This document shows positions 6,777 to 58,964 of a stretch of DNA of 64,000 bases, piece after piece; positions within the stretch are counted from its first letter, which is position 1; each line of letters starts with the position of its first letter. The stretch is from Candidatus Berkelbacteria bacterium (GTDB lineage Bacteria > Patescibacteriota > UBA1384 > 2-12-FULL-50-11). Location of the stretch: NCBI GenBank assembly GCA_016432625.1, contig CP066697.1, positions 151,113 to 215,112 of the forward strand, in the 5' to 3' direction. The position numbers and the translations under genes are program-made. The notes beneath the pieces are model-generated. The model searched no databases and was not told where the DNA came from. It saw only the letters and a program-made list of their open reading frames with translations.

Positions 6777-8090
6777 CTATTTGACGTACCAGTCGGCGAT
6801 TGACCGATAACGGTCTGAAGCGTTTTGGGCGAGCCAGGGCTTCTGAACGGCGATCGTGTCCTCGGCGATAAAACTTACCGACTCCTGCTTCAGAAATTTC
6901 GCAACGCCCTCTCGCTGCAACGCCTCGTGTAACGATTTTATCGCTGCTGTGCGCTCAGCGACATTAGTCAGCTGGCGCAGGGTATCGATTTGAACGTCGA
7001 TACCGTCATTATTGATGCCGGAAAAATTATTGCCCGGCGGTCGGATTTGAGAGGAGTGCCATAAGTAGGTTGGATCCATCTCGGCGCCGTAATCGATTCC
7101 CGTTAGCAAGGCCTGAAACTGCCGGCTCGGCCCGGCCTTGTCTTGGATTTCGTCCAGCGGTTTTAGCTCTAGGGTGACTTGGGCGCCGAGTGCCTGCCAG
7201 CGCTTAACGAGCTCCTCGGCCAGACCCTTATACGGTTCCTGGTCTGCGGCCGTGAGAGTAAATGGCGAATTTGCTACCGTCGATTCGTCAATCAACGCCC
7301 GACGCATCGCCCCGTCACGAAACGGCGACTTGTTAATGTTGAAAATGACGGCGTAATACTTTGACAACTCAAATGATTGCAGGTGATAGCCTTCCGGCAC
7401 TGTTAAGTTTTCGTTCTCGGCGCCGTCTACCTTACCCTTGTCCAGCGCTTGCTGGAGCAACGCTTTGTCGGCGTAGGTGTGGACGATAACTTTGTTCAAG
7501 TAAGGCCGAACCGCCCCCTCGCGCGGATTGCGACTGAAAATCGTTGTCTTGCCGGTCGCTTTATTAAGCTTGTATGGCCCGTAATCAAATAGTGGCTGCG
7601 TCAGCAGTAGGGGAATATTCGGATTGGCCTTAGTCGTTTTGATCGCAATTTCGTCGCCATCGGTCAGTTCTACAGAGGCAGGGCCAAGTAGCTCCAGACT
7701 ATTTTGCAATTCGGTAAGGATTTCGTTCTTACTTACTTCCTTCAAAAGCTTGAAGAAGTACTCGGTTTTTTCTGGATTGACGCGCCAATCTTGGACAAGC
7801 ACGTTTTCCAACTCGCCATCGTTATTAATAGTAAACAACCCAGTTTTTGTCAGACGCGTCGCAATTTGTTGGACGTCACGCTCAGTGCCGACGAGCCCTT
7901 CAACATAACTGCCACCGGCGGTGGCAGTGCCTTGATTCTGGGCAAACTGGCGGTACCAGAAAGTACCGCTAATAACGATCACTACGGCGAGTAGGGCCAG
8001 GATCACTTTTTCGTAATGGCTGATTATCTGCGTCACTCGCGCCGCGTATCGTTTTTGACGCGCAAAGAAATTGTCCATCGAAGATCGCAT
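6777..8090 (-). CDS. Membrane-anchored solute-binding-protein-like protein (family 5 peptide/oligosaccharide-binding fold, tentative)
   Basis: 437-aa ORF with an N-terminal TM helix. General resemblance to SBP_bac_5 proteins, judged by recall only. Confidence 0.5.
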   Translation of the reverse strand: MRSSMDNFFARQKRYAARVTQIISHYEKVILALLAVVIVISGTFWYRQFAQNQGTATAGGSYVEGLVGTERDVQQIATRLTKTGLFTINNDGELENVLVQDWRVNPEKTEYFFKLLKEVSKNEILTELQNSLELLGPASVELTDGDEIAIKTTKANPNIPLLLTQPLFDYGPYKLNKATGKTTIFSRNPREGAVRPYLNKVIVHTYADKALLQQALDKGKVDGAENENLTVPEGYHLQSFELSKYYAVIFNINKSPFRDGAMRRALIDESTVANSPFTLTAADQEPYKGLAEELVKRWQALGAQVTLELKPLDEIQDKAGPSRQFQALLTGIDYGAEMDPTYLWHSSQIRPPGNNFSGINNDGIDVQIDTLRQLTNVAERTAAIKSLHEALQREGVAKFLKQESVSFIAEDTIAVQKPWLAQNASDRYRSIADWYVK

Positions 8091-8341: not shown

Positions 8342-8423
8342 GTACCGGATATCCTAAGGCTTTGCATGTTTGGCGTCAACCCCTTTTACTCTTTAAGCGC
8401 TTCGATTTTCTACGTTGCTCTTG

Positions 8424-8495
8424 AGGCCACGAGGGGATTTGCACCCCTGTAAAACGGTTTTGCAGACCGTTCCCTGACTACTCGGGCACGTGGCC
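8424..8495 (-). tRNA. tRNA-Cys (anticodon GCA)
   Basis: Acceptor GGCCACG/CGTGGCC, anticodon stem ACGGT/ACCGT with loop CTGCAAA, T-arm AGGGGTGCAAATCCCCT. Confidence 0.85.
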
Positions 8496-8643: not shown

Positions 8644-9366
8644 ATGTCGATAGTCTCACAGCAAAAACGATCATCACTCGCCCCCACGGGGGCCACGACC
8701 AGTTCGGCGAATGGGCTAATCAGCCCGGCACTCGCCAATGCCAGTCTCCATACCTTGGAAACGCTCGGCCACAGACGGCTCCTGGAAACCAGGCGCGTCC
8801 AGTTCGATAACGTTATCGAAAGGCTTAAGGGGGACGGCCTGACTATGAGGGAGCTCAGAGAGCTGCTGCAGAACACATGCCGCGACATTCCTGACGGGTT
8901 GATCCTGTCTGGCGAAGAGTCGCTGCGCCATCGTCACGAAGAGTTGGGGGTGACGCTGACCTGCCGATCCGACGGCAGCGTCGATGTCTGCTGGAGCGTG
9001 TACAAGGGGCGATCCGACGTCCTTCGCTTACTGCTCACCAGCGACGATCAAGGCTTGGAGCTCGAGGAGCTCAGGTACAAGCCGGAAGAGTTTCAGATGC
9101 CAGGTCTGACAGCTCCAACTCGCCACTTGGAATGGCTGCTTCCAGTCTACGACTGGATAGCGGCCCACGACGTCAGGGGGAAGGACCACTTGGCCTGGAA
9201 ACAAGTCGAAGCGCTCTATGGGCAGACCATCCCGTTTGTCCGCCTTGACCGCAAACGCCACAAGACCCTCGAGGATCTCGGACGCATGCCGTCGATGTTC
9301 CAGCCATTACGGCAGGAATTCCAGCGGTTGAACGCGCTTGGATCCTTGATCCAGTTCCAAAGCTAG
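8644..9366 (+). CDS. Hypothetical protein (GC-rich orphan between two tRNA genes)
   Basis: 240-aa ORF with ATG start, followed by its own hairpin terminator. No recognisable motif. Confidence 0.5.
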   Translation: MSIVSQQKRSSLAPTGATTSSANGLISPALANASLHTLETLGHRRLLETRRVQFDNVIERLKGDGLTMRELRELLQNTCRDIPDGLILSGEESLRHRHEELGVTLTCRSDGSVDVCWSVYKGRSDVLRLLLTSDDQGLELEELRYKPEEFQMPGLTAPTRHLEWLLPVYDWIAAHDVRGKDHLAWKQVEALYGQTIPFVRLDRKRHKTLEDLGRMPSMFQPLRQEFQRLNALGSLIQFQS

Positions 9367-9425: not shown

Positions 9426-9427
9426 TG

Positions 9428-9500
9428 AGCGGTAGACCGGTCTCGAACCGGCGACCTTATCCTTGGCAAGGATACGCTCTACCAACTGAGCTACTACCGC
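9428..9500 (-). tRNA. tRNA-Gly (anticodon GCC)
   Basis: Acceptor GCGGTAG/CTACCGC, anticodon stem TATCC/GGATA with loop TTGCCAA, T-arm GCCGGTTCGAGACCGGT. Confidence 0.85.
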
Positions 9501-18224: not shown

Positions 18225-18235
18225 GCTTCCGTTTG

Positions 18236-19979: not shown

Positions 19980-20008
19980 AATGTCAAGTTTGCTTTACAG
20001 AGTATAAT
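19980..20008. promoter_or_regulatory. Divergent dnaJ-like / ybjQ promoter region containing operator copy O3 (TGTCAAG-TTTG-CTTTACA, 19982-19999)
   Basis: On the minus strand the palindrome reads TGTAAAG-CAAA-CTTGACA, with GACATT at the position where the other two copies have TACAAT/TACATT. On the plus strand a TATAAT at 20003-20008 lies 6 nt before the ybjQ ATG. Confidence 0.5.
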
Positions 20009-21787: not shown

Positions 21788-22159
21788 TCAAACGCTTTTC
21801 TTTTGGCCGTCTCTAACTGAGAGTTGGTCAGAGTACGTGTTACGGAGCTTGATATATTCATCAATCGTGTAGGCCCTCTGCCAATCACACTCCAACACAT
21901 CAACCAAATGGAAAAAATTATTTTCAAGTTTCGCTCTGCGCTCATCAATCTGCTCCCGCGAGCGAAGATCACGGATACCTAAGTATTTTTCATAGATTCC
22001 TTTCGCTCTCAGATGGAAAGAATCCAGTTTGGTTTCGATTAACTCTCTATTTTTCCACCAAGAATTACGGGCGGTATCCAGAATTTCGTTGGCGTGAGTC
22101 CGTACACATTTGCCCTGGCATCTTCTTTCGGCCTGAGCGAAAAATCTTCTGTGACGCTT
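21788..22159 (-). pseudogene. Start-less open frame continuing the 163-aa ORF in the -1 frame (frameshifted gene, programmed slip, or homopolymer error)
   Basis: 123 stop-free codons with no ATG, GTG or TTG in the first 80 or so. They encode ...NEILDTARNSWWKNRELIETKLDSFHLRAKGIYEKYLGIRDLRSREQIDERRAKLENNFFHLVDVLECDWQRAYTIDEYIKLRNTYSDQLSVRDGQKKSV. The frames join at an A5 run (T5 on the plus strand, 22050-22054). Confidence 0.45.
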
Positions 22160-22530
22160 TCAAAAGTTCCTTTTGGGCATAATATTACTACCACCTTTGG
22201 CATAACGGCCGTGCCGAATTGAATCAACCTGTTCTGGTAGTGAGTCTTTGTCCAATAGAATAAAACTTCAAGGCCTTCACTCTTTTCTTGAAAGGCTTCC
22301 CAGAAGTGTTGAAAATCCATTTTATTGGTAATAAACCCAGAAATTTCTCGATCAATACCCTTGCACCTCAGCGAGATAGTGGCGTAGGGAACGTCTTTTA
22401 CCTTAGATATTACTTCGCCATTTTCAACCGTACTACCAAGCGGTCGGAGTTCGTTAGCTATACATAACTTGCTATCGATAACCGACCACTCATTATCTCT
22501 AAGTAGGACAACTTCTTCTGAGTTATTCAT
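22039..22530 (-). CDS. Hypothetical protein (AT-rich islet), probably the 5' part of a longer frameshifted gene
   Basis: 163-aa ORF with ATG start. No recognisable motif. Confidence 0.5.
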   Translation of the reverse strand: MNNSEEVVLLRDNEWSVIDSKLCIANELRPLGSTVENGEVISKVKDVPYATISLRCKGIDREISGFITNKMDFQHFWEAFQEKSEGLEVLFYWTKTHYQNRLIQFGTAVMPKVVVILCPKGTFESVTEDFSLRPKEDARANVYGLTPTKFWIPPVILGGKIES

Positions 22531-22593
22531 AGCTGAATTTTACTACTTCCTGAATTGATTCAAAGAGAACTGCTCCCTATGCATGTGCCGTTC

Positions 22594-23952
22594 TTATTCT
22601 TTGAGACCCATCTCGGACCGTATATCGCTAATAAAAGTCTTCGCTTTCTCTTCAAGTATATTTTGATCGGGCCTGACACTTGCTAGGAACAACTCGAAAT
22701 ATTTTAGTGCCTTAACTAGGTCGCGCAACTTTTTATAGGCAATGTAGCCAAGCCAAAAATGCAGTTGATTCCTATCAGGATAAGTTTCAAGGAGATTCAA
22801 ACAAAACTGTTCAACCTCTTGGATGGTAAGCCATTCTTCGGAATACTCATGCTCAACAATTTTCCTCGAGGACTTATAAGCCTCGTCGTATTCCGATAAC
22901 CAATAATGCAAAAATGCATCGCTGTACCTCCACTCCTGGGCTCCATTAGCTAAGTTCTTCGCAAGCGCGATTTCTTGTTGCGCCGCCTTCGCATCACCTT
23001 CCTTGAATAGTTCCACGGCTCTTACTAGATGAAAACCGTACTGATTAGGGTAATAACTCTGTGCTCTTTTCGAAAACGTTGAGTACGACGCTAGGTCATC
23101 CTTCAGTAAAGACATTCGTGCTTTTAGCAAATAACTACCTGCCAATAATTGTTTGGCCTTGATCTTTACTTCCTCAATATTTGGAGGTAAATCATTTCTT
23201 TGAAAAAGCTTATCGTCAATTAGGCGCTCGTGGAGGGTTATTGCGAGGTTGACGTCACCAGATAAGAATGCAGCAATACCTACTATGTACTTTGCCGATA
23301 AATAAACAAAATCAGCGGTTAAGGCGAACCCTCTAAATCGGAATTCTTCTAACATCTCCACTTCTTTAGGTAGGGATCTTACAAAGTCGGCAGATAATTT
23401 AAACTGACTGTTTTTGTCTATCGGTGAGTGCACTACTAAACCACTTAAATCAATAAAAATCTTTTCCTTTTCTCCATCAGGACGTTTTTTAACGTCTCCG
23501 AAGACGAAATAGTGTCCATGGACTGTCTCATTTATTGTTCGCGCAATTTCATAGTTTTTTACTTTCTCGGCAATATGGTTGGGTACTTTTACTACTGTGA
23601 CTAACTCACTCAATCCATCTGCGACTAAGTTTTTTCTTACCTGGTCAAGAAAGTCCTTTTTAGCATCTATTTCCTCGAGGTTATCCTCGCTGTAAAGCGC
23701 GAAAACTAATCCAAGCTTCCCCTCGGGTATTTTTGGAAGCCACTTCCTTACTACTATCCAAGCAACTATCTCAATTAAGAGTAATACTACGAGGCCCCAT
23801 CTTAGATAACTGACTCCAAAAAGTTCTAAGAGGGGTTTATAGATAGCCGCAAATATAATGCCCGTTAACACTACCGTGACTAATAATCCGCGAAAACTTG
23901 CAAAGTTAATTCTGATGTATGACAAATAGGGTCGCAGTTTATCAATTGGCAT
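22594..23952 (-). CDS. Two-TM membrane protein with a central alpha/beta-like domain and C-terminal TPR-like repeats (AT-rich islet)
   Basis: The ATG at 23952 gives MPIDKLRP... The track ORF instead begins at a TTG at 24000, immediately after the dnaK stop. TM helices occupy residues 30-90. The C-terminal half is helical-repeat-like (YGFHLVRAVELFKEGDAKAAQQEIALAKNL...). Confidence 0.6.
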   Translation of the reverse strand: MPIDKLRPYLSYIRINFASFRGLLVTVVLTGIIFAAIYKPLLELFGVSYLRWGLVVLLLIEIVAWIVVRKWLPKIPEGKLGLVFALYSEDNLEEIDAKKDFLDQVRKNLVADGLSELVTVVKVPNHIAEKVKNYEIARTINETVHGHYFVFGDVKKRPDGEKEKIFIDLSGLVVHSPIDKNSQFKLSADFVRSLPKEVEMLEEFRFRGFALTADFVYLSAKYIVGIAAFLSGDVNLAITLHERLIDDKLFQRNDLPPNIEEVKIKAKQLLAGSYLLKARMSLLKDDLASYSTFSKRAQSYYPNQYGFHLVRAVELFKEGDAKAAQQEIALAKNLANGAQEWRYSDAFLHYWLSEYDEAYKSSRKIVEHEYSEEWLTIQEVEQFCLNLLETYPDRNQLHFWLGYIAYKKLRDLVKALKYFELFLASVRPDQNILEEKAKTFISDIRSEMGLKE

Positions 23953-24000
23953 CAGCCTATAAAGAAAGAGAGCTGATAGCTCTCTTTCTTGTTTCTCCAA

Positions 24001-25998
24001 TTAGTCTTTTTTGTCCCCGTCATCTTTTGGTTCTTCCGGCACATTTGTGTCCGGGGTGCCATCCGCCTTCGCCGAGGCTTCGTCGGATGAATCGTCTTTG
24101 GGGAGTTCTTCTTCCGGCTTCGGCTGTCCCTCCTGCGCTGAAGCTTCCTCCTTCGCAGATGCTTCGGAGGACGAGTCGGCGGGCGAGTCATACATCGCGG
24201 CGCCGACTTTTTGGAGGGCGGCACTCAATTTTTCCGCCTCCTCTTTGATTTTGTCTTTATCGTCGTTGTGGATGACGGCTTTGACGGCGGTAACGGCGTC
24301 TTCGACTTCGCGTTTGTCGTCCGGTTTGATCTTATCGCCCGCGTCTTTGAGGGTTTTTTCGCTCAAGTGAATAAGGTTTTCGGCGGCGTTTCGTTCTTCG
24401 ACCAGCTCTTTTTTCTTGGCGTCGTCGGCGGCGTGAGCCTCGGCCTCGGTTTTCATCTTTTCGATCTCTTCTTTGGATAGCCCACTCGAAGCCGTAATGG
24501 TGATGTGTTGTTCTTTGGAAGTGGCTTTGTCTTTGGCTTTGACGTTCAGAATTCCGTTTGCGTCGATGTCAAACGTCACCTCAACTTGCGGGACGCCGCG
24601 GGGAGCCGGTGGAATACCATCGAGATGGAACTTACCTAGCGTCCGGTTGTCGGAGGCCATTGGCCTTTCGCCTTGTAAGACGTGGATTTCCACAGATGGC
24701 TGGTTGTCGCTGGCCGTGGAAAACGTTTCCGTTTTTGAAGCGGGAATAGTGGTATTGCGCTCAATGAGCGGCGTCATTACTCCACCCAGAGTTTCGAGAC
24801 CCAAGGTTAGCGGGGTGACGTCGAGCAGAAGAATATCCTTAACTTCGCCTGATAAGACGCCGCCGTTAATGGCCGCGCCTAAAGCAACCGCTTCGTCGGG
24901 GTTAACGCCTTTCGATGGCTCTTTGCCAAAAACATCTTTAACAACTTGCTGAATCATCGGCATGCGGGTCATCCCACCGACCAAGATAACTTCGTCAATG
25001 TCAGATTTGGTGAGTTTGGCGTCTTTCAAAGCGGCTTCGCAGATGCCTCGGGTTTTCTTGATGAGGTCGCCAACTAAACTTTCCAATTTTGCGCGCGACA
25101 GATTCATCTGCAGGTTTTTTGGACCGTCAGCGTCAGCGGTAATAAACGGCAAGTTGATCTCGGCTTCCTGGGTTTGAGAGAGCTCGATCTTGGCTTTTTC
25201 AGCTGCTTCTTTGACCCGTTGCATAGCCATAGCGTCGCCAGTTAGATCGACACCCTCTTTGGCTTTGAATTCGTCGACGATCCAGTTCATCACTTGAATG
25301 TCGATGTCGTCTCCACCGAGGTGAGTATCACCGTTCGTCGAGAGCACTTCGAAGCTGGATTCGCCTTTGTCTTCGCCAATTTCGATGATGGTGATATCAA
25401 ATGTTCCACCACCAAAGTCGTAAACGGCGACTTTCTGGTCTTTTTTGTCTTCTTTGTTAATGCCGTAGGCGAGAGCCGCGGCGGTTGGTTCGTTGATAAT
25501 GCGCTTAACTTCGAGGCCAGCAATGGTGCCGGCGTCTTTGGTAGCCTGGCGCTGGGAGTCGTTAAAGTATGCCGGGACGGTAATAACAGCGCCGTCGACT
25601 TTTTCGCCGAGATAAGCCTCGGCATCAGCTTTGATTTTGGCCAGGATCATTGAGGAGATTTCTTGGGGGGTAGACTCGTTTTCGGCCATTTTGACCTTAA
25701 CGCCATCGCCGCTCTTTACAATTTTGTAAGGCATCAGTTTGATGTCGCGCTGAACTTCTTCGTCAGTGAAGCTACGACCCATTAAGCGTTTAACAGAGTA
25801 GATAGTATTTTCCGGATTGGTGACAGCTTGGCGCTTGGCGAGCGTGCCAACAAGGCGTTCGCCTTTTTTATTGACCGCGACGATGGACGGCACTAAGTTG
25901 CCGCCCTCAGCGGTTGGGATCATTTTGGCTTTACCGCTTTCGATGACGGCTGAAGCCGAGTTAGTTGTTCCCAGGTCAATTCCGATTATCTTAGACAT
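24001..25998 (-). CDS. dnaK: Chaperone DnaK (Hsp70) with an acidic low-complexity C-terminal tail
   Basis: [22 protein letters not shown]-type motif ([12 protein letters not shown]), [11 protein letters not shown]. The start is set at the ATG at 25998 rather than the in-frame GTG at 26004. Confidence 0.95.
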
Positions 25999-26056
25999 TT
26001 GCACCCCATTCTATGTCTGAGATATCCAAAACGGTGTTTTTGATAATCTTTCCCAT
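25991..26056 (-). CDS. Possible 21-codon upstream ORF overlapping the dnaK start
   Basis: ATG at 26056 with an AAGGAGGAGAG tract about 10 nt upstream. Encodes [21 protein letters not shown]. Its stop (TAA, 25993-25991) lies 2 codons after the dnaK ATG in another frame. Confidence 0.35.
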
Positions 26057-26099: not shown

Positions 26100-26127
26100 A
26101 TTGTAAAGTTTCCTTTACATTTGTCAA
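26100..26127 (-). promoter_or_regulatory. dnaK promoter with embedded operator copy O1 (TGTAAAG-N4-CTTTACA, 26102-26119)
   Basis: Minus strand reads TTGACA-AA-TGTAAAG-GAAA-CTT-TACAAT. The -35 and -10 boxes are 16 nt apart and the perfect 7-bp-arm palindrome overlaps the -10 box. Confidence 0.65.
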
Positions 26128-26217
26128 TGGCGAAAGATGGCGTAGAGCGTTGAGTTTGAGAGGTGCTTATGAGAAAATGATGGCCGCTCGTAACCACGGG
26201 CAGCAATAGGAGCGGAA

Positions 26218-26967
26218 ATGACCCTTCGAGAAACTTTACAATCCAATCGCCAACCCGACGTCGCCCTGGCGGACGACGTCGCCTTCGCCGTGATCGACTC
26301 GATCCGCCCGTTGATGGGCGCTGAACCACCTCCGGCTCGCGTCGACGGCGACCAAAGCCAACGGATGCGCTCCGCCCGCCTGGCCTACTTCATGCTTCGA
26401 GAACGAAGCGCGCACCTCGACACCTGTTTGCGCGTCATCGGTTCGGAAGAATTTCCGGTCGATGTACTCATTGCCGACTTGAAGGATGCCGAAAAGCGAC
26501 TTCATGCTCGGGCTCACAACGAGAACCAGACACTTAGTTGGCTGGGTCTTGCCGCTGTCGATTTCGATACGGTACTGATAGATGGGAACCAGCACGTCGA
26601 CTTCGACAAAGTCGTTTGTTACGGTTCCGCGACGCAAGAACAAGCCTTCTTTGGCACGATCGCCGGCCTGATGCCGCGACTGGCGTCCGAGGACAACACA
26701 AGCTTCACTAGTCACCTAGCAAAGTCTCTGTGCGCGGCCACGCGCCAGAAGCTCTGCAACGACTGGAACGGTACTGAGCTTTGTCTTGATGCCACGGCGT
26801 TCGGCTTCGCGCTGGGAACACGCGACCTGTATAGGCAGGCACAGACCCTGGCGTTCGAAAACAAGGAGCCGCTGCAACTGGATCATTTCGGCCGAGCAAA
26901 AGGCTGGGAGTCTCTCGCGCTTTTCGCGAGCTATCCGACGATCCGCGCCGCTATCCTGCCCAAATAA
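26218..26967 (+). CDS. Hypothetical protein (GC-rich insert between grpE and dnaK)
   Basis: 249-aa ORF with ATG start, on the strand opposite the chaperone genes, followed by a terminator. Confidence 0.5.
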   Translation: MTLRETLQSNRQPDVALADDVAFAVIDSIRPLMGAEPPPARVDGDQSQRMRSARLAYFMLRERSAHLDTCLRVIGSEEFPVDVLIADLKDAEKRLHARAHNENQTLSWLGLAAVDFDTVLIDGNQHVDFDKVVCYGSATQEQAFFGTIAGLMPRLASEDNTSFTSHLAKSLCAATRQKLCNDWNGTELCLDATAFGFALGTRDLYRQAQTLAFENKEPLQLDHFGRAKGWESLALFASYPTIRAAILPK

Positions 26968-26983
26968 GGCCATGCCCTGACTG

Positions 26984-27019
26984 AAAGCCCCTCCTCCCAC
27001 CATAGAGGCGGGGCTTTTC
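26984..27019 (+). terminator. Rho-independent terminator
   Basis: AAAGCCCC ... GGGGCTTT stem followed by a T run. Confidence 0.6.
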
Positions 27020-27106
27020 ACTATCCAAAAAAGTGCTCTAGCAACTGGATTTTCCCACTTTTTAAGATATAATTCGCACACGAACCTATCAGTTCAGGAG
27101 GCAGCT

Positions 27107-27658
27107 ATGCAGAAATTCACCCCGCTTGGCGGACCAATGCTTCAAGGCATTGAGATGCTAGCACGACAACACGGCCTTCGCGGCCAGTTCAGTATTCTCC
27201 TTGCCGTGCGAACGCAGGAAATGATTGCGGACCACGACGAGAGATGCAGCGGCTGGTCAGTAATGGCTAGCGCCCGCAAAGACGGGAAGATACTCATTTA
27301 CCCATGGATGTGGGAAAGGTTTCTTGAAGAGGACGTCGCGACTGCGGTTGGCTGGATGGCCAATACGCTCGCCGAGGAAATCGGGCATCTCATCGATTAC
27401 GAGCGGTTTCCGGCCTGGACGGAAAGCTTGCTGGATTGGCGGTTTCTGCTGATTCGCAATCTCCGAGACCGGCTCGGGAAATCGATCCCGCGCCTACAGC
27501 CGTCGCTCGTCAAGCTCTACGAATGGGCTTACAGGCGCAGCTTCTTTGAGAAAAGAGCGAAGCGCTTCGCCGAGGATCATGAAGAGCAGTACTTCGCTGC
27601 TATCTGGCCTCACTTCCACTACTACAGGGAGGTCTATCTCAACTTGTCACGGGAATGA
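27107..27658 (+). CDS. Hypothetical protein (GC-rich insert). It contains an AEEIGH motif that loosely resembles a degenerate HExxH/ImmA-type site.
   Basis: 183-aa ORF. AGGAGG lies 6 nt upstream of the ATG and a TATAAT lies further upstream. Confidence 0.55.
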   Translation: MQKFTPLGGPMLQGIEMLARQHGLRGQFSILLAVRTQEMIADHDERCSGWSVMASARKDGKILIYPWMWERFLEEDVATAVGWMANTLAEEIGHLIDYERFPAWTESLLDWRFLLIRNLRDRLGKSIPRLQPSLVKLYEWAYRRSFFEKRAKRFAEDHEEQYFAAIWPHFHYYREVYLNLSRE

Positions 27659-27681
27659 GCGTAAGCTTGTTCCCGTTTCCT

Positions 27682-28218
27682 TTACCCCTTTGAAACGCGG
27701 ACTTTGGCCGGTTTTATTACTTTGCCCTTAAGCATCCAGCCGGATTCAATTTCATCGATGACGGTTTCTGCTGGCAGGTCGCACGCTTCGTAGGAGATTG
27801 CTTCGTGCAAGTTATGATCGAAATGCGCCCCTTGGGTCGGAATGCGCGTCAGGCCGGCGTCGGCGACGATCGTTTCGAGCTGTTTTTCGATTTGGCGTAA
27901 ACCTTCAAAATAGGCGTGAATCTTTTGAAAAGCCTCTTCGCTTAAGGTTGTTTGGTCGTCGTCAAGTGAAATTGTCGGGGCGTGGGTTGAAGCGCGGTAG
28001 AAATTGTCCAGTACAGGGAAGAGTTTATGCAGCCAGTGGGCTAACGTCCGTTCCTCGAGCACGGCTCGGTCGTCGTGCATGCGCCGTTCTAGGTTAGAGT
28101 AATCCGCCGCCAAGCGTTTGCGACTGTTTTCGGCAGTTTCAAGTTTGGTCTTAATCTCGGCCAATTCTTTTTTGAGCTTATCGATTTCGTTGTCGTTTAA
28201 TTTCTTTTTAGGAGTCAT
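27682..28218 (-). CDS. grpE: Nucleotide exchange factor GrpE
   Basis: Coiled-coil N-terminus. DNFYRA (family DNFRKR-like position) and a C-terminal beta domain GWMLKGKVIKPAKVRVSK. Confidence 0.9.
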   Translation of the reverse strand: MTPKKKLNDNEIDKLKKELAEIKTKLETAENSRKRLAADYSNLERRMHDDRAVLEERTLAHWLHKLFPVLDNFYRASTHAPTISLDDDQTTLSEEAFQKIHAYFEGLRQIEKQLETIVADAGLTRIPTQGAHFDHNLHEAISYEACDLPAETVIDEIESGWMLKGKVIKPAKVRVSKG

Positions 28219-41382: not shown

Positions 41383-42366
41383 TTGAAGTTTCTCCGATCT
41401 CTAAAGGAATACCTCCTCTTTGCCTGGGAATACCTGACGCATGACCCGGGCAAGGGGCGCTACGCCCTCCACATGTTCGCCAACACGGCCGACATGTACT
41501 TTTTCGTTAACAGGGGTGGCGTCTTAAGGGGATCAGAGAACCCGGCCACTCAACTGACTCGTCAACGGCTCGGCGGCAGCTACAAACCGCTCCTGCCTAA
41601 TGAGGACCTCGGTATGGTTATCGAGTGCCTCGAGACTGGACAGCCCAAGGAAATCTTTGGGTTATTCGACGGCAAACGTGCCGTCTGGACCTGCACGCCT
41701 AGGCTCGGAACCGGCGAAGTGATGGTTTGCCTCTCGGTTGAACGAGGGGAGCTAATCCACCAAGCCACGATCCACCCCTTGAGCGGCCTACGTAACAGGT
41801 TGGCCTTCGAGACTGACTTAGACCGGATGCCTTCGGTCGAGAACGGCACCTACGAAGCCATAGTGTTCATTGATGTCGACAACTTTGGCGACTTCAATAG
41901 CAGCCTTGGCCACGAAATAGGTGATTTCGTCATCCGCGAGGTGGGTCATGCCACCAGGGAACAGTTCCGCCAGATCGACATGTCGTACACCTACGGTGGC
42001 GATGAGGAGGTCGTGCGAATGCGCGAGATACCTGGCGAATTTGCTGAAGCGAAGAAGGTCGTGGAACAGACGACCAAACTGCTTCAGCGCAGGATCGCTC
42101 GCATCAAGCACAAGGGCAAAGCACTTGGCATCACCGTCTCGATTGGCGTTACGCTTTTCGAGAGCGGTGAAACCGATCTGCAGCAGCGGATCAAGGAGGC
42201 CGACGACGCCCTCTACTTCGCCAAGGAAACAGGACGAGACAGGGTCTGCTTCTTCCAAGAAGTCGATCCGTCCTGGCTATCCGAACGCCGCAAAGTCGCT
42301 CCGACTATCGGAGCGACGGAGCAGAAACGGCCTGTTGTAGTGAAAACCGCAAAGAGCCCGGCCTAG
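41383..42366 (+). CDS. GGDEF-domain protein (diguanylate cyclase-like) with an uncharacterised N-terminal domain. The active-site motif reads GGDEE.
   Basis: TTG start with AAAGGAG 9 nt upstream. Motifs HPLSGLRNRLAF, FIDVDNFGDFNSSLGHEIGD, RQID-x5-GGDEE, SIGV, ADDALYFAKETGRDR. Confidence 0.8.
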   Translation: MKFLRSLKEYLLFAWEYLTHDPGKGRYALHMFANTADMYFFVNRGGVLRGSENPATQLTRQRLGGSYKPLLPNEDLGMVIECLETGQPKEIFGLFDGKRAVWTCTPRLGTGEVMVCLSVERGELIHQATIHPLSGLRNRLAFETDLDRMPSVENGTYEAIVFIDVDNFGDFNSSLGHEIGDFVIREVGHATREQFRQIDMSYTYGGDEEVVRMREIPGEFAEAKKVVEQTTKLLQRRIARIKHKGKALGITVSIGVTLFESGETDLQQRIKEADDALYFAKETGRDRVCFFQEVDPSWLSERRKVAPTIGATEQKRPVVVKTAKSPA

Positions 42367-50900: not shown

Positions 50901-51605
50901 CTACTTCTTCTTCACCTGAATCTTCGTGGTCTTCGGCTTAGCCGGTTCCACTTTCGGCGCCACTATCTTAAGCGTCCCGTTTTCGAGTTTGGCCTCAACC
51001 TTGTCTTCTTTGATCGGCGTGGCAAATCGAATTGAACGACTGAACTCACTGTGTTGCCACTCACGACGCACAACATTCTTGCCTTCTTTCTCATTTTCGT
51101 CGTGCTTTTTAGTGCCAGTGATAGTTAGTGTATCTTCCGTCATCTCGATCTGAACATCGTCTTCGGCGTAACCCGGAACCTGTAATTCGATTTCGTACTC
51201 TTTGTCGGTTTCATGAATATTCATGGCGCCGGCAACGGTGCCCAGTGCTCGCGACCAATCACCACGACCAAAATTACGGTTGACCATCTCGCTCATCTCT
51301 TCTTGCATTCGATCCATTGCCTGAAACGGACTCCATGGTGCTAATTGCATCTTCGACTGCTCACCTCCTTCCTGAATTTCGTTATCGGTTGCTTGCTGAA
51401 CAATGTTTATGCCTTCGATTAAATCCGGCAAATTACAGCGGAAAAATTCCATCAGTGAAATCAAAACTGGCGCGCTAGGCAGATACTCGCCACGTTCAAG
51501 CGAGATTATCGATTGGCGAGATACGTTTAATTCCCGAGCCAATTCTTCTTGGCTCAGATCTCGCTGGGTGCGTAACTGGCGTAGTAATAAACGGAATCGA
51601 GGCAT
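50901..51605 (-). CDS. Fusion protein: N-terminal XRE/Cro-type helix-turn-helix domain plus a complete Hsp20/alpha-crystallin small heat-shock protein
   Basis: Residues 1-65 (LRQLRTQRDLSQEELARELNVSRQSIISLERGEYLPSAPVLISLMEFF) fit the HTH_3 pattern. Residues about 125-215 (HETDKEYEIELQVPGYAEDDVQIEMTEDTLTITG...FSRSIRFATPIKEDKVEAKLENGTLKIVAPK) fit the alpha-crystallin domain. The C-terminal KIQV is an I-x-I/V motif. Confidence 0.8.
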   Translation of the reverse strand: MPRFRLLLRQLRTQRDLSQEELARELNVSRQSIISLERGEYLPSAPVLISLMEFFRCNLPDLIEGINIVQQATDNEIQEGGEQSKMQLAPWSPFQAMDRMQEEMSEMVNRNFGRGDWSRALGTVAGAMNIHETDKEYEIELQVPGYAEDDVQIEMTEDTLTITGTKKHDENEKEGKNVVRREWQHSEFSRSIRFATPIKEDKVEAKLENGTLKIVAPKVEPAKPKTTKIQVKKK

Positions 51606-51615
51606 TTATACGCCT

Positions 51616-51644
51616 AATGTAAAGTAAACTTTACATAGCGTCAA
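51616..51644 (-). promoter_or_regulatory. Promoter of the HTH-Hsp20 gene with embedded operator copy O2 (TGTAAAG-N4-CTTTACA, 51618-51635)
   Basis: Minus strand reads TTGACG-CTA-TGTAAAG-TTTA-CTT-TACATT (17-nt spacer). The ATG lies 10 nt after the -10 box, which implies a near-leaderless mRNA. Confidence 0.65.
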
Positions 51645-57005: not shown

Positions 57006-57021
57006 ACAAACTTAAAACGAC

Positions 57022-57056
57022 AAAAGCCGCTGGCGTTATTCACGCTGGCGGCTTTT
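57022..57056. terminator. Bidirectional terminator hairpin
   Basis: AAAAGCCGC ... GCGGCTTTT between convergent genes. Confidence 0.7.
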
Positions 57057-57076
57057 GGTATTTACTCAGCTGGTCG

Positions 57077-57751
57077 TCAGTTAACGACGTCAAGCCTCGT
57101 GATCCGGAGCTTGCCATCGACCTTGCCGAAGCGAAGGTCTAGACCGAACGACATGCCAGGGCGTGGCCCTTTGGCATCGCGCGAGGTCATCTTGACCTTG
57201 ACACCGTGTTTGGTGAGCTCGTAGGCCTCGAAGTTCTTAATGCCCTCCTCGTTGCCGTTCAAGCTGCCTCGCTCCTTGAGAAACTCAATTCGTTCGGCTA
57301 GATATTCCGGCCAAGCCGGATGATCTGGTCCCTTGACGATCGCAGTCGGGTCGCTACCCGATTGGGCTGTCTCGACGAAGTACTTCGCGAGCGCCAACCG
57401 GGAATCGAGCAGCTTTCCCGAGGCCTCAGCGACGAGCGGCAGCTTGCCGCCGGCCGAGACTTTCAGGCTGAGCTCGAAGCCCGCTTTGTCGAACTTTTGG
57501 GCGTCGTTAACGGCTCGGAAGTTGGTTAGACCATCGGCATCGGAGCGATAGAGGGTAACGTTGCCGTCGGTGCAAAAGGCTTTGAAGTCCTTGAGCGCCT
57601 GTTGCAACCCCACCTGGTTCCGGCCGTCGGTCGTTACCATGAGTAGGGCTTCGGCTGGGTCCTTCTGGGCCCGGGCGACGAAGTCGTCGAGTTGGTCGGC
57701 GCTTGTCAGACACGCAGTTGCAAGCAAAAGAAGTGCGAAAAGATGTTTCAT
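57077..57751 (-). CDS. Secreted or lipoprotein-like hypothetical protein (GC-rich)
   Basis: Signal MKHLFALLLLATACLTSA. 224 aa with no known motif. Confidence 0.55.
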   Translation of the reverse strand: MKHLFALLLLATACLTSADQLDDFVARAQKDPAEALLMVTTDGRNQVGLQQALKDFKAFCTDGNVTLYRSDADGLTNFRAVNDAQKFDKAGFELSLKVSAGGKLPLVAEASGKLLDSRLALAKYFVETAQSGSDPTAIVKGPDHPAWPEYLAERIEFLKERGSLNGNEEGIKNFEAYELTKHGVKVKMTSRDAKGPRPGMSFGLDLRFGKVDGKLRITRLDVVN

Positions 57752-58323: not shown

Positions 58324-58893
58324 CTATTGTAACGCAATTGTCCCGGCCGTGCCGGCCGGGACAATGATCGGGGTCTTATCGACGCTCTCTAAGCGCCAGA
58401 TTTCATCTGTGGGCTTGCCGGGAAGCTTCTTCCAGCGCAACCGCCACTCAAAGCCTTTCAGCTCTAAGCCTACGGGAATGACACCCTCCGGATAGCGGAA
58501 TCGGACGATCACGAGATCCTGAGTGTCATTCTTCTTGTCACCCATAACGAGCTCGTAGCTGATCGTTTTGCCTTTGAGGGAGGGGTTGCGTTCGAGCTCA
58601 GTCCATCCCTGGGCGAAGTCCTTGATGAAGTAGACGCGCCGTTCCTCTCGGAGACGGTCAAACTCGGTCTCGATGAGCTGGGGATCGAAATACACCATAT
58701 TCTTGACGGCGTCGTAGCCGTCTTTTAGGGTGCCAATAGGCGTTTCCCGACCAACGGCGCGAGTTTTCTCGATCATGACCCGCGTGAGGTTAACCCGAAT
58801 GTCCTCGGAAGGATTCATCGGGAACAACGATGTCGAAGCGTCGGCACAACCTAGGGTTGCAACGACGATAAATGGAAGAACGAATAGTCGCAT
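58324..58893 (-). CDS. Secreted or lipoprotein-like hypothetical protein (GC-rich)
   Basis: The ATG at 58893 gives MRLFVLPFIVVATLGCADAS (lipobox-like LGC). Confidence 0.5.
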   Translation of the reverse strand: MRLFVLPFIVVATLGCADASTSLFPMNPSEDIRVNLTRVMIEKTRAVGRETPIGTLKDGYDAVKNMVYFDPQLIETEFDRLREERRVYFIKDFAQGWTELERNPSLKGKTISYELVMGDKKNDTQDLVIVRFRYPEGVIPVGLELKGFEWRLRWKKLPGKPTDEIWRLESVDKTPIIVPAGTAGTIALQ

Positions 58894-58964
58894 ATTTGCC
58901 TCCGTGCAACGAATGCCTGACAATTTTCGACTAATTTTAAGCGCAAATCAAGAGGCTGGGTTCT

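Follow-up and report, generated by a model that had tools for sequence, protein, structure and literature searches.

We analyzed a 64,000-nt stretch of contig CP066697.1 from a Candidatus Berkelbacteria metagenome-assembled genome (MAG; Patescibacteria/Candidate Phyla Radiation, CPR), hereafter called the window, and focused on a 1441-nt segment at 26218-27658 that holds two plus-strand open reading frames, ORF1 and ORF2, between the minus-strand chaperone genes grpE and dnaK. An earlier sequence-only reading had described this segment as a GC-rich two-gene cassette inserted into the chaperone cluster. Comparison with related loci leads us to a different picture, in which the segment is probably the current content of a lineage-specific variable gene slot in one Berkelbacteria clade, and not a one-off foreign cassette.

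Relatives' loci were found from GrpE homologs together with members of the two new protein families described below, and were mapped by tblastn, with GrpE identities to the window taken from tblastn or BLASTP. Across these loci dnaK is 70–85% identical to its relatives, and the content of the grpE-dnaK gap changes from one locus to another. ORF2 homologs occupy it in L004 (GrpE 89% identical; the homolog carries an intact HExxH motif and is followed by the contig end), alone in L009/L010 (65%), with a 60-aa ORF in L006 (61%), and on the same strand as grpE in L017 (41%). ORF1 homologs are found there together with a 391-aa gene in L015/L016 (55%) and with a 95-aa gene in L014 (51%). Elsewhere the gap contains a 335-aa orphan on the opposite strand (a JGI contig, 76%) or unrelated genes of 135 and 336 aa (L007/L008, 59%), and it holds no gene at all in L011/L012 (60%, 73-bp gap) or L002 (44%, 112-bp gap); the L005 contig (79%) ends at the grpE stop. 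Across the relatives the occupants represent at least six unrelated orphan families, with hhalign probabilities below 1% for ORF1 against ORF2 and the occupants X336 and X391, as well as for ORF2 against X135.

Measured against the grpE-dnaK adjacency of L002 and L011/L012, the segment is an insertion, as the sequence-only reading had proposed. The two-gene cassette part of that proposal does not hold, since the ORF1 and ORF2 families occur together only in the window genome and elsewhere stand alone or beside unrelated genes, and so do not form a conserved cassette. The suggested import from outside is likewise not borne out: where context is known, nearly all homologs of both families lie in the same gap of other Berkelbacteria-like contigs, with no phage, plasmid or mobility matches.

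Several comparisons point to turnover of whole coding sequences within this gap. The window and L004 share 89% identity in GrpE but only 28% in ORF2, whereas the closest homolog of the window's ORF2, at 37% identity, comes from L017, whose GrpE is only 41% identical. L006 and L011, with 86% identical GrpE, differ in whether a slot gene is present or absent. At the DNA level, identity between the window and L004 runs at 70–88% per 60-nt block across grpE (mean ~82%), becomes unalignable from the grpE stop codon through ORF2, and rises again in part over the promoter and 5′ untranslated region (UTR) of ORF2, with 36/60 matches and a core, TAyAATTCGCrCACGAACCTA, that agrees at 19/21 positions. 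Divergence is thus greater in the ORF2 coding sequence than in the non-coding DNA beside it, a pattern that favors coding-sequence replacement over in-place drift. The core itself (TATAATTCGCACACGAACCTA, 27068-27088, plus strand, in the window) may serve as a regulatory site or mark a recombination boundary; its copy in L004 lies at ~9005-9040 (minus strand), and part of it, TTCGCACAC, recurs 5′ of the L017 homolog at ~7975-7990. We also note that two independent assemblies break at the slot, with the L004 contig ending at 9166 and the L005 contig ending 15 nt past the grpE stop; these breaks are consistent with strain-level heterogeneity, without proving it.

In the scheme we favor, the slot would span the interval from the grpE stop codon to an ancestral dnaK promoter-operator. 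The ancestral state would have been grpE followed, within 20–110 bp, by a separately promoted, operator-controlled dnaK; with dnaK separately promoted, DNA could be added in the gap without breaking an operon. Individual lineages would then carry zero, one or two slot genes drawn from the six or more unrelated, unannotated families, with rapid turnover by gain, loss and replacement, and the likely route would be recombination anchored in the highly conserved chaperone genes. Within the window's own occupants, ORF1, divergent from dnaK, would be transcribed from a weak promoter of its own ~35–60 nt beyond the operator, and the first histidine of the ORF2 metal-site motif would have been replaced by glutamate in the subclade to which the window's copy belongs.

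Such a slot resembles core-gene-flanked hotspots, that is, islets without mobility genes, in its fixed position between core genes, in the presence or absence of occupants at 86% GrpE identity and replacement of alleles at 89%, in its mildly atypical composition without integrase, repeats or transfer RNA (tRNA) genes, and in the contig breaks of two relatives. It differs from these hotspots in being tiny (zero to two genes), in lying inside the classical grpE-dnaK-dnaJ cluster, in having only unannotated orphans as occupants, and in that two of its families are almost confined to it and are not common to other loci or elements. We accordingly regard ORF1 and ORF2 as accessory genes with the fast turnover seen at such hotspots, and not as chaperone components.

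A number of points weigh against this interpretation. Most of the relatives are short metagenomic contigs, and two ORF2-family proteins, P0125 and P0127, fall outside the known-context counts. On one 1.6-kb contig (L013), the place of dnaK upstream of an ORF1 homolog is taken by a histidine-phosphatase-like gene. The recombination route is inferred from these patterns. Finally, near-exclusive linkage of both families to a single locus is unusual for generic accessory cargo and might rather reflect a functional link with the chaperone system, a reading to which we return below.

The composition of the segment bears on whether it was recently acquired. Its GC content of 0.563 lies at the 99.8th percentile of same-size windows across the 64 kb (mean 0.503, s.d. 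0.025), and the maximum of a sliding GC scan of the window falls on the ORF1-ORF2 segment. GC at third codon positions (GC3) is 0.67 in both ORFs, compared with a gene mean of 0.567 (s.d. 0.061; z ~ +1.6) and values of 0.57–0.59 in the flanking genes. Against a null matched for length and composition, codon usage is modestly atypical in ORF1 (z 2.8) and not atypical in ORF2 (z -0.6). The compositional deviation of the segment is real but mild. The spot counts from which the sequence-only reading had started (41/60 G+C at 26281-26340, 34/60 in dnaK at 24061-24120) are exact, and the windowed analysis places the segment at the GC maximum of the window, so that the atypical composition expected of a genomic island is present in mild form.

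These features, together with a separate promoter and terminator for each gene, a strand opposite to that of the flanks, and adjacent grpE and dnaK in L002 and L011/L012, are what one would expect if a two-gene cassette had recently been acquired horizontally from a GC-richer donor, its composition not yet adjusted. We consider such a recent acquisition decidedly unlikely. The genome-typical codon usage of ORF2 does not fit it, the only homologs occupy this slot in related, Berkelbacteria-like genomes, where the two genes are never found together, and the ORF2 promoter/UTR is common to the window and L004. In addition, the GC3 excess is shared by slot genes in other hosts, being 0.68 vs. 0.59 in L006, 0.65 vs. 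~0.50 in L014 and 0.74 vs. ~0.60 in L007; slot genes exceed their flanks in L006, L014, L013, L007 and L017, with L015 and L009 as exceptions. Seen in several hosts, some of them ~40% apart in GrpE, this excess is a recurrent and persistent property of these genes and gives no evidence of fresh import. The sequence-only reading had held that it would fall if relatives carried the same two genes here with genome-typical composition; what the relatives show is intermediate, as they carry one or the other gene, with GC3 raised in most hosts and not in all.

Marks of mobility are also lacking. No integrase, transposase or recombinase was found by Pfam, PHROG or NCBIfam in the segment or among the relatives' slot proteins, no flanking repeat pair brackets 26130-27680, and no tRNA gene adjoins the segment (the nearest are at 18235 and 39962). 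Tblastn against phage and plasmid collections returned no match, and neither did scans of IMG/VR with both family alignments or a metagenome scan with the ORF2 alignment.

Next, we consider whether ORF1 and ORF2 are genes at all. For both, a word-indexed search across 5.8 billion proteins retrieved the query alone, which turns out to be a false “ORFan” signal. When 1.84 billion cluster representatives were searched exhaustively by HMMER, with ORF1 and ORF2 concatenated into one query, the matches at E ≤ 0.001 were, self excluded, four ORF2-family proteins (P0123, P0124, P0125 and P0127; E 1.7e-18 to 2.8e-8) and three full-length ORF1-family proteins (P0126, P0128 and P0130; E 1.2e-8 to 2.8e-4), the remaining match being one 1232-aa protein aligned in eight short stretches. 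A synteny walk from GrpE homologs added two further ORF2 relatives, in L004 and L009. ORF2 and ORF1 are thereby members of two new, very small protein families, of seven proteins (~180–195 aa) and four proteins (~245 aa), respectively. Identity to homologs ranges from 22 to 37% across both families, and ORF1 is 27–32% identical to P0126, P0128 and P0130 over its full length. Scans of ORF1 and ORF2 against Pfam, NCBIfam, PHROGs and PADLOC gave no meaningful match (a mobB match at E 0.003 is meaningless), and the same libraries gave nothing significant for 17 slot and neighboring proteins; with respect to anti-phage defense, no PADLOC model was matched by ORF1, ORF2 or any of these 17 proteins.

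The empty word-indexed search, and the several long overlapping antisense ORFs that the segment contains, as expected of GC-rich DNA, could be taken to mean that both ORFs are open merely by chance, in non-coding DNA of high GC content, or that the arrangement is a chimera of MAG assembly. Both possibilities are extremely improbable. The existence of full-length homologs of similar length with conserved columns, for both ORFs, effectively refutes the first; the ribosome-binding sites and terminators in place and the GC1>GC2<GC3 pattern of both ORFs, which is of the coding type, also speak against it. As for a chimera, an independent Logan assembly of run SRR12113407 shows identical gene order, so the arrangement is not an assembly artefact.

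Gene calls and Pfam matches confirm the layout described by the sequence-only reading. The slot is bounded on its conserved left flank by dnaK (24001-25998, minus strand; Pfam HSP70, E 2e-250) and on its conserved right flank by grpE (27682-28218, minus strand; Pfam GrpE, E 6e-36), with ORF1 (HZB70_01975; 26218-26967, plus strand, 249 aa) and ORF2 (HZB70_01970; 27107-27658, plus strand, 183 aa) between them, the latter next to grpE. The separate expression signals noted earlier are likewise present for each gene. ORF1 has a ribosome-binding site, AGGAG, 6 nt 5′ of its ATG, and is followed by a hairpin terminator (26983-27018, plus strand) with 13-nt arms that are 92% complementary, a UUUUC tail and a folding energy of -21.8 kcal/mol (z -4.3). 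L004 has a similar GC-rich hairpin at the equivalent position, 5′ of its ORF2 homolog. ORF2 has a TATAAT -10 box (27068-27073, plus strand) and an AGGAGG ribosome-binding site (27096-27101, plus strand), and a 12-bp stem at 27649-27676 lies where the 3′ ends of ORF2 and grpE converge, with folding energies of -19.2 kcal/mol (z -4.5) on the plus strand and -14.3 kcal/mol on the minus strand; this hairpin is likely a bidirectional terminator. A sub-threshold match to Rfam BjrC68 over the same interval (26.7 bits vs. a cutoff of 39) was read as terminator-like. ORF1 and ORF2 are real genes, and we read them as independent transcription units and not as a functional pair.

We also examined the left boundary of the slot, where dnaK has a strong promoter of its own (TTGACA-N16-TACAAT, 26100-26127, minus strand; 11/12 consensus positions) with a perfect palindrome, TGTAAAG-N4-CTTTACA (26102-26119), lying between and overlapping the promoter hexamers as a presumed operator. 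The sequence-only reading had recognized this operator-controlled promoter and explained it by the insertion. The promoter stands, but the explanation does not: a perfect-palindrome promoter-operator unit precedes dnaK in L006, L007, L009-L012, L014, L015 and L017, which includes L011/L012 with their empty slots, and the distant L002 has a copy with one mismatch. Because the unit is present at empty slots, the dnaK promoter-operator is ancestral and independent of the insertion, and, if anything, it is the pre-existing split of grpE and dnaK into separate transcription units that makes the gap tolerant of insertions.

The palindrome has three matches in the window against 0.14 expected, preceding dnaK, dnaJ (19982-19999, one mismatch) and a gene at 50901-51605 (minus strand; operator at 51618-51635, 13 nt upstream), but not grpE. 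This last gene encodes a 234-aa protein in which an XRE-type helix-turn-helix (HTH) domain (HTH_3, E 1e-14) is fused to an Hsp20/alpha-crystallin domain (E 8e-21). All 11 of 11 full-length metagenomic homologs of the fusion (57–76% identity; L018-L028) have the perfect palindrome upstream of their own start, directly after a TTGAC(A)-type -35 box. On the strength of this association, the HTH-Hsp20 fusion is a candidate autoregulated heat-shock repressor that would act at the palindrome; no published description of an XRE-HTH/Hsp20 fusion regulator was found in the literature. Known heat-shock operators are not represented in the window, with no CIRCE (TTAGCACTC-N9-GAGTGCTAA) at up to three mismatches and no HAIR (CTTGAGT-N7-ACTCAAG) at up to two. 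Compared with the canonical hrcA-grpE-dnaK-dnaJ operon under HrcA/CIRCE control, the three chaperone genes here share order and strand, but they are separated and individually promoted, with a different palindrome at dnaK and dnaJ.

Two further observations concern the dnaK upstream region. Compared with relatives, the dnaK leader is extended by ~60 nt and contains an upstream ORF of 21 codons (25991-26056, minus strand) that starts at the apparent ancestral dnaK ribosome-binding site and ATG (compare L014, cttactcATGGGT), repeats the first five DnaK residues, and ends in a TAA stop overlapping dnaK codons 2–3 (ATGTCTAA). The arrangement points to a degenerate duplication at the 5′ end of dnaK, and translational coupling is possible. 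Separately, codons 5–9 of ORF1 (26230-26242, plus strand) contain a 13-nt perfect inverted copy, GAAACTTTACAAT, of the operator half-site and -10 box at 26100-26112; ~0.07 such pairs would be expected by chance in 3 kb, and the copy is not evidently conserved in ORF1 homologs.

The proteins themselves offer limited clues to function. ORF1 is predicted to be soluble (pI 5.4, no hydrophobic segment) and mostly helical in a low-confidence single-sequence AlphaFold2 model (predicted local distance difference test, pLDDT, 33), with no Pfam, NCBIfam, PHROG, PADLOC or PDB match and no recognizable catalytic motif. ORF2 is likewise predicted to be soluble (pI 7.0, no transmembrane segment) and reads A-E-E-I-G-H, with E90-E91-I-G-H94 at nt 27374-27388 and E148 at nt 27548-27550. 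In an alignment of all seven family members (alignment A2), A89, E91, H94, D97, Y142, E148 and A151 are invariant, and the column of the first histidine holds His in 4/7 members (P0123, P0127, L004 and L009) and Glu in 3/7 (the window, P0124 and P0125). The intact motifs HEIRH, HEMQH, HEVCH and HEVCH align column for column with AEEIGH, so that the earlier suggestion of a degenerate HExxH was right at the family level. The invariant E148 follows H94 by 54 residues, and both it and the motif lie in predicted helices of a low-confidence model (pLDDT 47).

The family's HExxHxxD motif and downstream Glu fit a gluzincin-type metal site, judging from the alignment, and the window's copy would then have a variant form of this site or be a derivative without catalytic function. 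In this respect the family is similar to small zincins (SprT-like proteins, minigluzincins and DUF5700) in its length of ~180–190 aa and cytoplasmic nature, in having HExxH in a predicted helix in 4/7 members, in its invariant Glu at the catalytic position and second His, in a downstream Glu that could be the third ligand, and in sub-threshold Pfam matches that center on the motif. It differs from them in having no significant match to any peptidase family or structure, in the EExxH of the window's copy, and in a fold modelled at low confidence. Several results speak against a metallopeptidase assignment, which draws on a short motif and two sub-threshold Pfam matches (SprT-like, E 0.016, 15.5 bits vs. 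a cutoff of 25.6, and DUF5700, E 0.017, in one family member each). The window's ORF2 has no first His ligand and so does not carry the zincin HExxH; profile and single-sequence searches of the PDB returned no peptidase, with chance matches only (E 0.017 to ~1); the single-sequence AlphaFold2 model is unusable (pLDDT 47, predicted TM-score 0.41); and a Foldseek search of this model against the PDB gave no match at E ≤ 0.001. A weak likeness of the N-terminal 35 residues to ribbon-helix-helix (RHH) proteins (hhalign vs. CopG, probability 16%, pairwise E 0.0017; E ~1 for the CopG-like match in the PDB profile search) is a weak lead only.

Membership in the ImmA/IrrE group (Peptidase_M78, COG2856), which the sequence-only reading had raised, is not borne out, since none of the seven family members matched Peptidase_M78 at E ≤ 5 and zincin matches are sub-threshold only. 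What the two groups share is an HExxH...E-type motif and, on the side of the partner, the XRE-type HTH of the apparent heat-shock regulator. They differ in that no XRE-type HTH adjoins ORF2, whose neighbors are ORF1 (no HTH match) and grpE, the sole XRE-HTH seen in the window being the Hsp20 fusion 23 kb away. The distribution of ORF2 is also patchy relative to the regulator, and the first His is lost in the window's copy.

These observations bear directly on a possible functional tie between the slot genes and the heat-shock system. The pairing of an HExxH protease with an XRE repressor is a well-established arrangement (ImmA/ImmR, IrrE/DdrO), and on this reading ORF2 would be an ImmA/IrrE-like protease that cleaves or antagonizes the operator-bound XRE-HTH/Hsp20 repressor, or else a heat-inducible quality-control protease, with ORF1, divergent from dnaK, co-regulated with it. 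The case for such a tie draws on position, with 5/5 ORF2-family genes of known context abutting grpE and 3/4 ORF1-family genes separated from the dnaK operator by ~100–110 bp or by one small gene, and on a regulon that seems to be controlled by an XRE-type HTH protein. In one relative an XRE-HTH gene lies directly upstream of grpE, and the inverted operator half-site copy within ORF1 and the weak RHH-like N-terminus of ORF2 may be added.

We nevertheless regard this tie as unlikely. The same operator and dnaK occur without ORF2 in L007, L011, L014, L015 and L002, other relatives have no ORF1, and the orientation of the slot genes is not fixed (L017). The absence of a Peptidase_M78 match and of the first His in the window's copy does not suit a repressor-cleaving protease, and protein identities of 22–37% despite GrpE identities of up to 89% are hard to square with a conserved partner interaction. 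We also considered a dnaK operator shared with ORF1 and set it aside: in both the window and L015, the putative promoters of ORF1 are located past the operator with no overlap, which leaves co-regulation hypothetical. A more speculative variant, to which we give still less credence, combines a slot with such a tie: the gap would be a dedicated swap slot for fast-evolving genes acting on the heat-shock circuit, with the ORF2 family as ImmA/IrrE-like antagonists or decoys (EExxH) of the XRE-HTH/Hsp20 thermosensing repressor and allele swaps reflecting phage or host-cell conflict over the chaperone regulon.

Beyond the slot, the strongest compositional anomaly near dnaK is not the ORF1-ORF2 segment but an AT-rich block directly 3′ of the dnaK stop (22039-24000, minus strand; GC 0.40–0.42, codon-usage z 7.3 and 3.2). 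This block encodes a 468-aa protein with sub-threshold TPR matches near its C-terminus and a 163-aa orphan, neither of which has a counterpart at the relatives' loci. The dnaK-dnaJ interval varies among relatives as well: L007 has dnaJ immediately 3′ of dnaK, L009 has a Fic gene there, and L006 has Peptidase_M23 among other genes.

The sequence-only reading had also pointed to similar GC-rich orphans with hairpin terminators elsewhere in the window. Three such genes do have raised GC3 (0.73, 0.72 and 0.67) and no Pfam match, but a hairpin terminator was confirmed beside only one of them. The first (8644-9366, plus strand) lies between tRNA-Cys (8423-8495) and tRNA-Gly (9427-9500), with no terminator-like site found around it. 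The other two (57077-57751 and 58324-58923, both minus strand) have N-termini that look hydrophobic and signal-peptide-like by inspection, and the former is followed on its 3′ side by a hairpin with a 16-bp stem (57021-57057). A fourth GC3-rich gene (41383-42366, plus strand) encodes a GGDEF diguanylate cyclase, the GC3 range of the four genes being 0.67–0.73.

Together, these results place ORF1 and ORF2 among the usual dark matter of CPR genomes, one of them with a metal-site-like motif, and indicate that a gap of a few hundred bases in one of the most conserved gene clusters of bacteria probably acts as a high-turnover slot. Such a slot would provide a compact natural marker of gene flux and recombination in uncultivated Patescibacteria, and its occupants may constitute a small candidate set of conflict-type genes. 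The palindromic operator that dnaK and dnaJ have in common with the HTH-Hsp20 gene, in a window without CIRCE or HAIR, additionally points to a testable candidate for a heat-shock repressor in this lineage.

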